IMG/VR virus record: IMGVR_UViG_2531839474_000004
Reading direction: 5' to 3' (one strand)
Source of the DNA: a virus
Lineage: Duplodnaviria > Heunggongvirae > Uroviricota > Caudoviricetes
DNA: 4,578 bases
Shown here: piece by piece, positions 1-4,578 of the stretch
Numbering within the stretch: the stretch's first letter is position 1
Layout: every line of letters begins with the position of its first letter
Notes under the pieces: model-generated
What the model was told of the DNA's origin: nothing
Seen by the model: the letters and a program-made list of their open reading frames with translations, nothing else
Database searches by the model: none
Translations under genes and position numbers: made by a program

Positions 1-1253
1 GGCCCGTCACCAAACCTGACCTGCAAATGCTGAAACATCCCCTGAACCTGTGTGGCATCTTTGGGGTCAAGAAAGGTCAGTCCGGTGATGAGCGCACCAT
101 CTGTACCCGGGAACCAGCCATAACTGTTTGTCTCAATAATGCTCACCGGCCCCAGACGAAAACGGATTTGTGTCTCCCCCGGGTCACCCTTCGGTCCCTG
201 AGGTCCGGTAGCCCCCACCGGGCCAGACGCACCTGTTTCCCCTTTCGGTCCCTGTGGGCCTGCCGGGCCTGCTGCCCCGGTATCTCCCTTTGGCCCCTGT
301 GGACCTGTACTTCCCGTCAAACCGGTCTCTCCCCGCTCTCCCCTGTCGCCTTTCGGCCCCTGCGGGCCTGCCGGACCTGTATCTCCTGCCGGCCCCCGTT
401 CACCGGTTGCCCCTGCCGGACCGGTGTCACCACGCTCTCCTTTATCTCCCTTCGGCCCCTGAGGACCCGCGGGACCCGGGTCACCCTTTGGCCCGGCTGG
501 TCCCACCACGGTGGGGATTCGGTTTACGGCGTCTTCCGCCGCTATTCTGCTTTGTTCCGCTGACTGTGCGCTTTCTGCTGACTCCCGGGCTTTTTCTGTT
601 GCGGTCGTTGCATCCCTGGCTGCATTACCGGCTGCACTTTCTGCCGTCTTTTTTGATAACTCAGCATCTGTTGCACTTTGTAATGACTCTCTGGCTTTTT
701 GAGCAGCCTCTGAGGCCGAGGACGAGGACGCTTCCTCTGACTTCTTTGCTGAGGCTGCACTTTCTGCCGCCTGCCGGGCTGACTCCGATGCATCCCCTGC
801 TGAAGCGTCAGCATTTGCAGCGCTCTTTTCTGCCTGACTGGCTGATATGCCGGCATTCCTCGCTGACGTCTCCGCCTCTCCGGCATTCTTCTTCGCCTCC
901 TCTGCGTGACGCGCGGCCTCTTCCACCATTTGTTCAAAGCGACGCAGTGCCTCCGGACGGGCATCATCCTCCGTCATTGCGCCGAGGAAATCATTCAGTG
1001 TGCCCGGCTTTGAGTCCTCATACACTGTGATAATCCCGGCATGTGATGGCGGGAACCCCTCCACCAACAGAATAACGCTGTACTGACCGTACTCAACGTC
1101 CATGCTGTAACGCCCGGCTTCATCCGGATTTTCAGAGGCCACCGTGTTCACCACCACCGTGGCGCTGTTACGTCTGGCTTTCAGTTGAATGGTGCAGTTC
1201 TCTACCGGTTTTCCTGTCCCGTCTTTCAGTACACCTGAAATCTTTACTGCCAT
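1..1253 (-). CDS. stf: Side tail fibre protein (Stf-like), N-terminal 417 codons; the CDS continues beyond the window start, with no stop codon in-window
   Basis: Hand translation of the minus strand from ATG at 1253..1251 gives [112 protein letters not shown]..., which closely matches the N-terminus of lambda Stf (orf-401) as I recall it. The frame stays open for 417 codons to position 3, with 2 bases left over. It is not in the ORF track because that track needs a stop codon. It lies 64 nt downstream of lom, as in lambda. A weak SD-like GGGGTG sits upstream of the ATG. Confidence 0.85.
171..503 (-). repeat. Collagen-like Gly-X-Y repeat tract inside stf: 37 uninterrupted triplets, codons 251-361 ([111 protein letters not shown])
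   Basis: Seen directly in the minus-strand translation. On the plus strand it appears as reiterated ggncc/cctttcggtccctg-type motifs. The GGN-CCN codon periodicity also explains why several other frames here lack stops and produce spurious ORFs. Confidence 0.85.
630..769 (-). repeat. Pair of exact 17-nt direct repeats (plus-strand ggctgcactttctgccg at 630..646 and 753..769) inside the Ala/Ser/Glu-rich shaft region of stf; the 123-nt offset keeps them in frame
   Basis: Direct reading of the sequence. On the coding strand the repeat is cggcagaaagtgcagcc, encoding the A-E-S-A-A motif twice (..[11 protein letters not shown].. and ..[11 protein letters not shown]..). Shorter copies of the ctttctgc core recur at about 569, 636, 759 and 827. 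Confidence 0.8.
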
Positions 1254-1261
1254 ATTCACCC

Positions 1262-1290
1262 CACAAAAAAGCCCGCCTGAACCGGCGGGC
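1262..1290 (-). terminator. Rho-independent terminator downstream of lom (minus-strand orientation)
   Basis: Minus-strand reading is GCCCGCC-ggttca-GGCGGGC followed by TTTTTT: a 7-bp all-GC stem (plus 1271..1277 pairing with 1284..1290), a 6-nt loop and a U-tract (complement of 1265..1270). It sits 28 nt after the lom stop and 11 nt before the stf ATG. Confidence 0.65.
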
Positions 1291-1317
1291 TGTCATAACA
1301 CTGTGTTACCTGGCTAA

Positions 1318-1917
1318 TCAGAATTTATAACCAACACCCACGATGAAACCGTCAGTGCGCCAGTCACCACTGCCGGAACCTTCATAAGCGACATCAATGG
1401 CCACGGATTCAGTCGGGTTAAACTGCACGCCAGCTCCCCACGCCAGAGACGTGTTGCTGTGGCGACCGTCATCACTTCCGGTCAGCACATCGTGCGTTTT
1501 CCCCTTGTTATCAGTTACGCGGAGATAATCCCCGGAAAAAGTCGACACACGGCTGTAAGCCACACCCGCCATCGCATACGCGCTGAACCATTCATTCACG
1601 CGCACAGACGGCCCCGCCATTACGCTGAACCAGCGGTTACGAACGGAATCTTCATGCCAGCGGGTATCGCTGTAACGGGTCAGCTGGCGATTCTTGTCTC
1701 CTGCATAGCTGAATGACGTCACCAGCCCCAGTGTGTCCGTAAACTCATAACGGTATTTCACGTTAATCCCGTTCAGATCATCACTGCCGGGAACGTTCGT
1801 CGAGGCATGAAGATACCCCGCGCTCAGCGTGGACTGATGTTCAGACGCCCATGCAGGCGCACCGGATACGGCCAGACAAATGGCTGCGGACAAAATTGCT
1901 GCACAAACTTTATGCAT
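1318..1917 (-). CDS. lom: Outer-membrane protein Lom (Ail/Lom/PagC/Rck/OmpX family, 8-stranded beta-barrel); a phage moron / lysogenic-conversion gene
   Basis: 199-aa ORF. The N-terminal signal peptide MHKVCAAILSAAICLAVSGAPAWA has an A-W-A cleavage motif. The C-terminal stretch ...VDVAYEGSGSGDWRTDGFIVGVGYKF, with its terminal aromatic F typical of OM beta-barrels, matches the lambda Lom C-terminus as I recall it. It sits between J and stf, as in lambda. An SD-like GAGGT lies 4 nt upstream of the ATG. Confidence 0.93.
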   Translation of the reverse strand: MHKVCAAILSAAICLAVSGAPAWASEHQSTLSAGYLHASTNVPGSDDLNGINVKYRYEFTDTLGLVTSFSYAGDKNRQLTRYSDTRWHEDSVRNRWFSVMAGPSVRVNEWFSAYAMAGVAYSRVSTFSGDYLRVTDNKGKTHDVLTGSDDGRHSNTSLAWGAGVQFNPTESVAIDVAYEGSGSGDWRTDGFIVGVGYKF

Positions 1918-1987: not shown

Positions 1988-4578
1988 TCAACGAATACTG
2001 ATGCCGGAAGCAGCTTTTTTGGTCACAATCACCGTACAGTCGGTGATATTGCCTGCCCCCTGATTGCCTTTCTGGAAAATCTTAAACTCCAGAGTGACGC
2101 TACCACCACCACTAGGCATATCAATAACTGCACTGTAACTACCGGGAATGGCCCCTTTAGTTTCTCTGGATGCGATTAATACGCCGTTTTTGCGAACTTC
2201 AAAACCATAACCCGTGTATCGCGTGCCTCCTGGGTTATTTCCGCTCCCCGGATCGTCATACGCTATACCGTTAAAAATAATGGGCGGAATAATAATCTGA
2301 CGGTCAAAGTTATGATCATCGCTGATGGTGACTGTAACCGTACCGTTTGGTGTTTCCGTGTTACCCCACGTACCGACTTTTTTCGGGAAGGCTTTTGATA
2401 CAGCTTTAACGAAATCCCCTCTGACCTGGGTCGCCTCCAGCATGCCCTTAATCGTACAGTTCTGGTTAATCGTGACATTGTTGAGCGTTCCTGAGTTCGC
2501 ATTCACACTGCCACTGATATCCGCATTTTTAGCGGTCAGCTTTCCGTCTGATGTCAGGGAAAATACCGGAGGACTGCCACCGCTGGTAATGGTGGGGGCC
2601 GTCAGGCGCTTCAGGAACACGTCGTTCATGAATATCTGGTTGCCCTGCGCCACAAACATCGGCGTTTCATTCCCGTTTGCCGGGTCAATAAACGCGATAC
2701 GGTTAGCGGCAACCAGAAACTGGCTCAGCTTGCCTTCCTCCGTGTCCTCCATGCTGAGGCCAAGCCCCGCGACATAATGTTTGCCGTCTTTGGTCTGCTC
2801 AATTTTGACGCCCCACATGGCATTCCATTTATCACTGGCGTCTTTCCACTCTTTCGAAAACTCCTCCAGTTTGCTGGCGTTATCCTCCGTCAGCTCGACT
2901 TTTTCCAGCAGCTCCTTGCCGAGATGGGATTCGGTTATCTGGCCTTTGAAAAAATCCAGATAACCTTCCGCATCATCGCTCGCCCGACCGACGGCCTCCA
3001 CAAATGCCGATTTACCAACGGTATTCACGCTGCGGATGTAAAAGTAATAATCATAACCCGGCTTAATATTGCTACTGGCAGCTATCCAGTACAGCGCCGT
3101 ACCAAGATAACGCGCGCTGGTTTCAACCTGCCTGATATCCGCAATCCGCGTTTCCGAGAACCAGAACTCAAACTGCACCGTCGGATCATAAACCGCAAGA
3201 TGCGGTGTGGCGGTTATCTGAAAATAGCCCGGCGTCAGCTCAATCCGCGACGGCGCTGCCGGTGCGGCAATCCGGAATGATACCGACGCCGGATCACCCT
3301 GCTGCCCCCAGGCATTTACCGCCCTGACTGTCAGCCTGTAGTTCCCTGGCGCCAGCTGCCTGAAGCGGTATGTGGTTTCCGTCGTCCGGGCCGTGCTGAC
3401 CAGCCGCTCACTGCCGTCATCCGCTGCCACGGTCAGACGAAGCAGAAAGCTCACCCCCTTCACCACCTTCGGCGTGTCCCAGCGCGCCAGCACCTGATAT
3501 TCCCCGCTGTCGGCGGTGACTTCGGCGGTCAGGTGCTGCACCGCTGGCGGCGTGACACCATTCACCGTGCCGCTCTGGTCGCCATCAAAGTGCGCCCCGT
3601 TATCCACGATGGCCTCTTTTTCCGGTACATGCTGCACGGCGGTGATGGCATACGTGCCGTCATCGTTCTCACGGATACTCACGCAGCGGAACAGGCGCTG
3701 GCGCAGCGTCGGCAGCTTCAGCCCCCATACGCTGTATCCGGCAACGCCGTCAGGAACACGGCTCACTTTTACCTTCACGCCGTCGGTGACGGACTGGACC
3801 TCCACGCTGACCGGATTACCACTTCCGTCAACCAGGCTTATCAGCGTGATACCGGAGGATGGCAGCGTGATTTCACGGTCGAGCGTCAGCGTCCGCGTCT
3901 GGCTGTTCACCGCCAGCACACGCCCGCCGATGCTGATACCCGCATAGTCATCATCACAGATTTCAATGACATCGCCCGGTACATGGCGAAGCCCTTCAGC
4001 ACCCACGCTGAAGTCCACGGTCTGCGTTTCCAGCAGCTCCGTTTTAATCAGCCACAGCCCGGCGCGGTGTGCCTGCCCCCGGCTGGTACAGCCAAAAGCA
4101 TCCATCTTCGTGACGTTACGACCGTAACGGGCAATGGCCTGCGTGTCCTCCACAAGCTCTGTCGCCGTCTCCCAGCCGTTATCCGGGTCAATCCAGTTCA
4201 CCTCAACGGCATTATGGCGGTCCTTCAGAGCGCTGAAGCTGTAGCGGAACGGCGCGCCATCATCCGGCATCACCACATTACTGCGGTTATAGGTCCACAC
4301 CTTATCCGATGGCCGGTCCTGCACGAACGTCAGCGTCTGCCCGTTCCATACCGGCATACAGCGCATCGCCGAGCAGAAATCACTGAGCACATCCCACGCC
4401 TTGCGCTGTGTGGTCAGGTACGCATTACAGGTGATGCGCGGCTCCGTGCCGCCAAAGCCGTCCGGCACCGACTGGTCGCAATTCTGGCCGATGACATACA
4501 GCGCCCATTTGTCCACATCCGCCGCACCAAGACGTTTCCCCATGCCGTAGCGCGGGTGGGTCAGCATATCCCACAGAC
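1988..4578 (-). CDS. J: Tail-tip host specificity protein J (central tail fibre), C-terminal ~860 codons; the N-terminal part lies beyond the window end
   Basis: The 859-aa track ORF (1988..4567) stays open upstream to the window edge (..LWD before [28 protein letters not shown]..). Over most of its length the translation closely matches lambda gpJ as I recall it (e.g. [101 protein letters not shown]). Stop codon TGA at 1988..1990. Confidence 0.95.

Follow-up and report, generated by a model that had tools for sequence, protein, structure and literature searches.

What is the collagen-like run of Gly-X-Y triplets that lies at positions 171-503 of a 4,578-nucleotide (nt) stretch of the Caudoviricetes record IMGVR_UViG_2531839474_000004, and what does such a run do in the tail fiber that carries it? 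We consider it highly likely that this run, coded on the minus strand of the stretch (hereafter the window, meaning the whole stretch that was analyzed), is the Col domain of an EPclA-type side tail fiber protein of a lambdoid prophage, whose gene lies 3' of the J and lom genes. It was Ghosh et al. (2012, PLoS One 7:e37872; PMC3368898) who established the EPclA class, and the feature is accordingly a known one: the class has been named, counted in the genomes of enterohemorrhagic Escherichia coli (EHEC) and characterized biophysically since 2012.

Identity of the collagen-like tract

Translation of the minus strand yields exactly 37 consecutive Gly-X-Y triplets (111 residues; amino acids 251-361, window 503..171) with zero interruptions, just as the preliminary description had read them. 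Outside the tract, Gly-X-Y runs reach 3 triplets at most in any of the six window frames, and when the surrounding GC-rich 500 nt were shuffled 2000 times the longest run to arise was 6, on which grounds we reject a chance or low-complexity artefact. A profile search for the collagen repeat, proposed in that description, recovers PF01391 over the tract at 65.8 bits against a gathering cut-off of 27.2 (E = 3e-18); collagen chains in the PDB also match the Col domain, with E-values down to 1e-69. The most frequent triplets are GPA and GPK (six each) and GPQ (five), followed by GER, GDT and GET with three each. The 37 X positions are occupied chiefly by Pro (18), Asp or Glu (13) and Ala (4), and the 37 Y positions by Lys or Arg (11), Thr (10), Ala (7) and Gln (5).

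The tract is one of four domains of a protein whose gene (1..1253, minus strand) starts at an ATG at 1253..1251 and stays open for 417 codons up to the left edge of the window, which cuts its 3' end. First comes the PfN domain (residues 1-133; 855..1253; PF08400, E = 6.8e-69), a homologue of the lambda StfN collar. Its residues 1-94 match, with E = 4e-51, the 'Tail fiber protein' of PDB entries 9E7M/9MGH, which depict the tail tip of Ur-lambda with the side-fiber collar of gpStfN, each fiber being a trimer; together, the PF08400 hit and the match to the 9E7M chain place this N terminus with the collar domains of the lambda Stf family. There follow the Ala/Ser-rich PCoil region (residues 134-250; 504..854), in which 104-108 of the 117 residues are identical to those of EPclA-type relatives, the Col domain itself, and the C-terminal globular PfC domain (residues 362-417; 3..170), which is cut by the window edge (PF06820, E = 2.1e-27, over residues 363-417 and profile positions 1-55 of 64). 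The tract is adjoined directly by PfC, a trimerization and nucleation domain, and has a coiled-coil region upstream. PHROGs likewise assigns the protein to tail-fiber families. A protein search listed no near-identical cluster of 437 amino acids, and DNA searches find hundreds of relatives at 93-95% identity; we therefore took full-length relatives from annotated records. Those of phage 434, E. coli E2 and VT1-Sakai, each of 437 amino acids (1314 nt), align to the window protein without gaps, so the window lacks just the last 20 codons of the gene.

These properties coincide with those of EPclA on every count that we compared. The standard EPclA has 437 residues, with a PCoil of 116 and a Col of 111 (Ghosh et al., 2012); here Col has 111 residues, PCoil has 117 by the boundaries 134-250, and the total of 437 is taken from the relatives. 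The order is PfN-PCoil-single Col-PfC, with PfC cut 20 residues before its end. Pro occupies 49% of the X positions, against 48.1% in the published EPclP profile, and GPK, GPQ and GPA are the top triplets in both. The genomic context is that of a lambdoid prophage tail module with J and Lom upstream on the same strand, and EPclA is found in most lambdoid prophages of the O157:H7 strains EDL933 and Sakai (PMC3368898, Table 2). Over the 417 residues available, 386 (92.6%) are identical to the fiber of VT1-Sakai (H0004; Sp15), whose EPclA is listed as ECs2941. This protein and ECs2717 of Sp14 share the domain order, Col length, triplet preferences and J-lom-fiber context of the window; they differ from it by allelic substitutions only, all of which keep the Gly-X-Y pattern (e.g. 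GPA for GPP in triplet 1, GDP for GEP or GEQ, GDT for GDA, GST for GNA and GAS for GAA). The side tail fiber of phage 434 (UMO75288.1), a bona fide cultured lambdoid phage, is 93.6% identical in nucleotides over 1320 nt, with the same 37 triplets and the same layout of terminator and ribosome-binding site, and its gene differs by point substitutions only.

The comparison with phage lambda itself delimits what is shared and what is not. Lambda Stf (Ur-lambda; 9E7M/9MGH) is also a trimeric side fiber, and shares with the window protein the N-terminal collar domain, the proximal Ala/Ser-rich coiled coil and the location behind J and lom; the match to lambda orf-401 extends over residues 1-253, with 59% identity, and goes no further. 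Distal to that point lambda Stf continues with a hinge and a gp37-like intertwined coiled coil and ends in an OmpC-binding tip dependent on Tfa, whereas the window fiber has Col and PfC; a Pfam search of the latter found no distal gp37-like Pf2-repeat region (PF03406), consistent with an end of lambda homology near residue 253. No frame of the lambda stf-tfa region holds a Gly-X-Y run longer than 3, which bears out the earlier statement that lambda Stf has no such tract. It had further been suggested that the tract is an acquired shaft module: the difference in modules from lambda, with Col and PfC following after about residue 250, is real. 'Acquired', however, implies a direction of exchange, and 'alternative module' is the safer wording.

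The putative trimeric fiber and its alternatives

The claim that a tract of this length suffices for a triple helix in a trimeric fiber has been established experimentally for the same architecture in EPclA, by circular dichroism (CD), ultracentrifugation/multi-angle laser light scattering and electron microscopy (EM). The recombinant protein is a trimer that dissociates on denaturation. It gives a collagen-type CD spectrum with a cooperative melt at 42 °C and a separate transition at ~50-52 °C for the trimeric coiled coil, and its PfC domain trimerizes and renucleates the Col helix. By EM it is a dumbbell with a thin stalk segment measured at ~28 nm, as opposed to the 32 nm predicted for 111 residues (111 x 2.9 Å; PMC3368898). 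By near-identity to EPclA, the tract in the window is probably a collagen triple helix of about 30 nm that is free of hydroxyproline.

On this analogy, three parallel chains would assemble into the fiber, with the N-terminal PfN domains predicted by homology to dock on the tail tip in the manner of the StfN collar in Ur-lambda. The Ala/Ser-rich segment would form a trimeric coiled coil, and the 37 Gly-X-Y triplets would wind into the ~30-nm helix, stabilized in the place of hydroxyproline by Pro at X and by charge pairs between Asp/Glu at X and Lys/Arg at Y. PfC would trimerize, nucleate the helix and form the distal knob, which presumably contacts the cell. The tract itself would then be a thin, semi-flexible spacer that sets the distance of this knob from the tail.

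Several points weigh against this picture. The experiments on trimer and helix come from the EPclA homologue. The last 20 residues of PfC and a downstream 89-residue gene fall outside the window, so this copy is no more than putatively intact. The related collagen-like lateral fiber of lambda_2B8 does not use BamA. Finally, the DNA repeats of the tract are imperfect (at most 14 nt exact), so the present-day instability of this copy may be low.

We weighed three alternatives to a working virion fiber. The one that survives best, although we still regard it as rather unlikely, is that the prophage is defective and its fiber gene in decay, with a tract that is real but has ceased to function. Many EHEC prophages are defective and frameshifted EPclA* copies are on record (PMC3368898); frameshifted alleles also occur among the homologues studied here (P0109, P0113 and P0118), the J gene of VT1-Sakai is itself truncated, and the end of the fiber gene lies beyond the window. 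Yet the 417 codons of the fiber gene are open, as are lom and the 859 codons of J within the window. Moreover, differences from the relatives within the tract fall mainly on third codon positions (positions 1/2/3: 5/2/19 with respect to phage 434, 5/1/15 to E. coli E2 and 5/3/21 to VT1-Sakai), with synonymous codon changes outnumbering non-synonymous ones by ~2.4 to 1, which points to purifying selection at least until recently.

A second alternative, to which we attach very little probability, is that the protein mainly serves the bacterium, as a surface adhesin or mimic of the host matrix comparable to streptococcal Scl or Bacillus BclA, rather than as part of the virion. Collagen-like proteins of Gram-positive pathogens do attach to host cells and matrix, a bacterial role for the EPclPs was left open by Ghosh et al., and BclA figures among the PDB sequence matches. 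Scl1/2 of Streptococcus pyogenes and BclA of Bacillus anthracis likewise form hydroxyproline-free Gly-X-Y helices that are nucleated by a globular trimerization domain and vary in length by repeat changes. However, those are proteins of the cell surface or exosporium with secretion and anchoring signals, different preferences at X and Y and unrelated flanking domains, whereas the window protein has no signal peptide or anchor and begins with the StfN tail-docking domain. Its gene belongs to the late tail operon, where it follows J and lom, and reported expression is linked to phage induction. A virion location is also seen in the related EPclB of short-tailed Stx2 phages (933W L0121, Sp5 ORF67/ECs1228, phi24B gp61), which shares the PfN, PCoil, Col and PfC modules and the collagen-like shaft: the protein of Sp5, a relative with two Col domains in place of the single one here, has been placed at the tail end by immuno-EM.

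Third, the preliminary description had named as one thing that would overturn it that the Gly-X-Y frame is untranslated, with for example a true gene on the plus strand; this, and likewise a reading of the tract as non-coding GC-rich repeat DNA, is excluded in practice, in that the two plus-strand open reading frames (ORFs) overlapping the tract (27..563, 178 amino acids; 254..1030, 258 amino acids) have zero Pfam matches, the plus frame that is stop-free across 171-503 is of the kind expected opposite GGN-CCN-rich coding sequence, PF08400, PF01391 and PF06820 all lie in register in one unbroken minus-strand frame, the substitutions fit the third-position pattern of that frame, and the annotated relatives all call the minus-strand gene.

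Length variation of the tract and its junctions

The preliminary description had pictured a highly reiterated GC-rich DNA tract, prone to in-frame expansion or contraction. The base composition holds (G+C of 0.70 in the tract and 0.55 in the rest of the gene), and the reiteration at the DNA level was overstated: exact direct repeats reach 14 nt at most (copies at 178 and 475), and the clearest repeat family consists of six copies of a 29-nt unit that are 72-79% identical. Tandem Repeats Finder reports a single array on the tract, with a 45-nt unit, two copies and 78% matches, and we do not regard a true tandem DNA array as supported. The repetition is mainly at the protein level, with synonymous differences breaking up the DNA repeats. 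What stands out is a motif of the form GPQ-GPK-G(D/E), of which five copies, all members of repeat family D2, lie on the minus strand: GPQ-GPK-GDK in triplets 5-7 (441..467), GPQ-GPK-GDR in triplets 16-18 (342..368), GPQ-GPK-GDT in triplets 23-25 (279..305), GPQ-GPK-GET in triplets 28-30 (234..260) and GPQ-GPK-GDP in triplets 34-36 (180..206).

The number of triplets does vary in frame, and abundantly so, as had been predicted. Among 120 homologue cluster representatives from the protein search the Col run spans 4 to 38 triplets, and the published EPclA Col domains span 63 to 144 residues, longer forms having 114-144 (Ghosh et al., PMC3368898). An alignment by triplets shows that most of the shorter PfC-type alleles equal the 37-triplet form with one clean deletion, and the ends of these deletions cluster at the repeated motifs. 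The first copy is a junction of the 8-, 14-, 19- and 26-triplet alleles, the second of those with 19 and 25, the fourth of those with 14, 20 and 25, and the fifth the downstream junction of those with 8, 19 and 26. The third is the upstream junction of the 26-triplet allele L004, which lacks exactly 99 nt and is the one allele whose junction we read at the DNA level: the crossover leaves the upstream GPQGPK copy and enters its downstream counterpart within a GGNCCNAAGGG stretch common to both, inside two GPQGPKGD-coding copies. A deletion between the two copies of the 14-nt repeat would yield a product of 4 triplets, and such a product exists (P0090).

This clustering is far beyond expectation. 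Eleven of the 23 distinct deletion events have repeat homology of at least six residues at their junction, nine of them by exact homology (2 or 3 of the eleven rest on near-exact homology), as against 12 of the 1061 possible in-frame deletions (1.1%; binomial P ~5e-16 for 11 of 23, with the nine exact cases still far above expectation). All 1061 possible in-frame deletions served as the null, since a permutation conditioned on size is uninformative where the spacing of the repeats fixes the size. The junctions used comprise the five GPQ-GPK-G(D/E) copies and a GPVGATG pair. This supports the earlier idea of in-frame contraction through repeats. In our reading the five copies are places where unequal recombination or slippage can occur without loss of frame; such events have given rise to the shorter natural alleles, beside which longer homologues exist, and have also joined the tract to alternative C-terminal modules.

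Other kinds of variation touch the same region. In three homologues (P0109, P0113 and P0118) the Gly-X-Y pattern breaks off after 3-4 triplets and the protein goes on in the -1 frame (VLRGRR...; compare window ~480-503). These copies are frameshifted or defective, much as the EPclA* entries of Ghosh et al., and the tract thus undergoes frame loss besides in-frame change. Another set, P0059-P0108, resembles EPclD, with a Peptidase_S74 intramolecular chaperone (PF13884) at the C terminus; these proteins share PfN, PCoil and the first 17-29 triplets and then diverge, from which it follows that module joints lie inside the collagen tract. The PCoil region too varies in length among the homologues, the Col domain starting at residue 188, 210, 224, 251 or 264. 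In the window, a short tandem repeat of GAGGAC (x3.2; 712-730) lies in the PCoil-coding region and encodes a run of SSSS, a minor trait of this low-complexity segment.

One might go further and view the Col tract as an evolved device for tuning length and joining modules rather than merely a passive spacer, a reading that we find doubtful on balance. Under it, the five motif copies and the many co-resident prophage copies may let lineages resize the shaft time and again, from 4 to ~48 triplets, and swap distal domains at in-frame junctions, and selection would fit the reach of the fiber to the thickness of the O-antigen or capsule layer on its present host. What the evidence covers is recurrent repeat-mediated resizing, and not selection on length or altered adsorption; literature searches, including those on fiber-length studies and on the lateral fibers of lambda_2B8, found no published test of shaft length against reach or host range.

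Gene neighborhood, distribution and bearing

All three genes of the window are on the minus strand, with J and lom immediately upstream of the side-fiber gene, and this J-lom-fiber order is common to the window, lambda, 434, VT1-Sakai and E. coli prophages. The J-type central tail fiber gene has its 5' end cut by the window edge; its longest ATG-initiated ORF runs 4567..1988 (859 amino acids), and a profile search finds PF13550, PF24421, PF24489, PF09327 and PF12421 in it. The lom gene (1917..1318) is of the Ail/Lom family (PF06316). Between lom and the fiber gene lie, as read on the minus strand, an intrinsic-terminator-like hairpin (1270..1291; an 8-bp stem with 7 GC pairs, then TTTTTT) and a Shine-Dalgarno-like GGGG (1259..1262), 6-9 nt 5' of the ATG; the annotation of phage 434 has a terminator and a ribosome-binding site at the same positions.

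Both upstream genes differ from their lambda counterparts. Window J is 85% identical to lambda J overall and near-identical over roughly the first 700 residues of the window ORF, with its last ~140 residues (chiefly window ~1988-2450) strongly diverged and gapped. Because this divergence falls in the C-terminal receptor-binding domain (PF12421), the central fiber probably recognizes a receptor other than LamB. The lom product is just 46% identical to lambda Lom. Since terminator-like hairpins bracket the gene on both sides (1948-1965 and 1270-1291, as annotated in phage 434), lom has the look of a 'moron' cassette, insulated from J on one side and from the side-fiber gene on the other. On the other side of the fiber gene, just beyond the left edge of the window, relatives carry a gene of 89 residues that begins 1 nt after it and itself matches PF06820 (L001 2669-2938, L002 3669-3938 and L004 2774-3043); the annotation of phage 434 calls it a 'tail fiber assembly chaperone', and the presence of a small PfC-like partner beside a PfC-ended fiber makes for a curious pairing. 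In the relatives, genes for type III secretion system effectors (NleG, NleC and others) come after this gene.

Of 5426 complete E. coli genomes, 4743 contain DNA resembling the first 1320 nt of the window (80-95% identity), a single genome having as many as 16 such places. The same holds for 364 phage records, mostly of Stx-converting phages, plus phage 434. A match to the whole window at more than 96.5% identity was found in none of these complete genomes, and a 38-mer specific to this Col allele has no match in the GTDB species representatives.

Set against what was known of EPclA, the tract adds little beyond confirmation, the variability of its length in multiples of three residues having already been tabulated (Ghosh et al., 2012). 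The increment here is the map of junctions, by which the shorter alleles are mostly clean single deletions ending on a few long repeated motifs. If the length of the shaft affects adsorption on smooth as opposed to rough hosts, this would bear on the spread of Stx and other lambdoid phages and on the engineering of fiber reach in synthetic phages.

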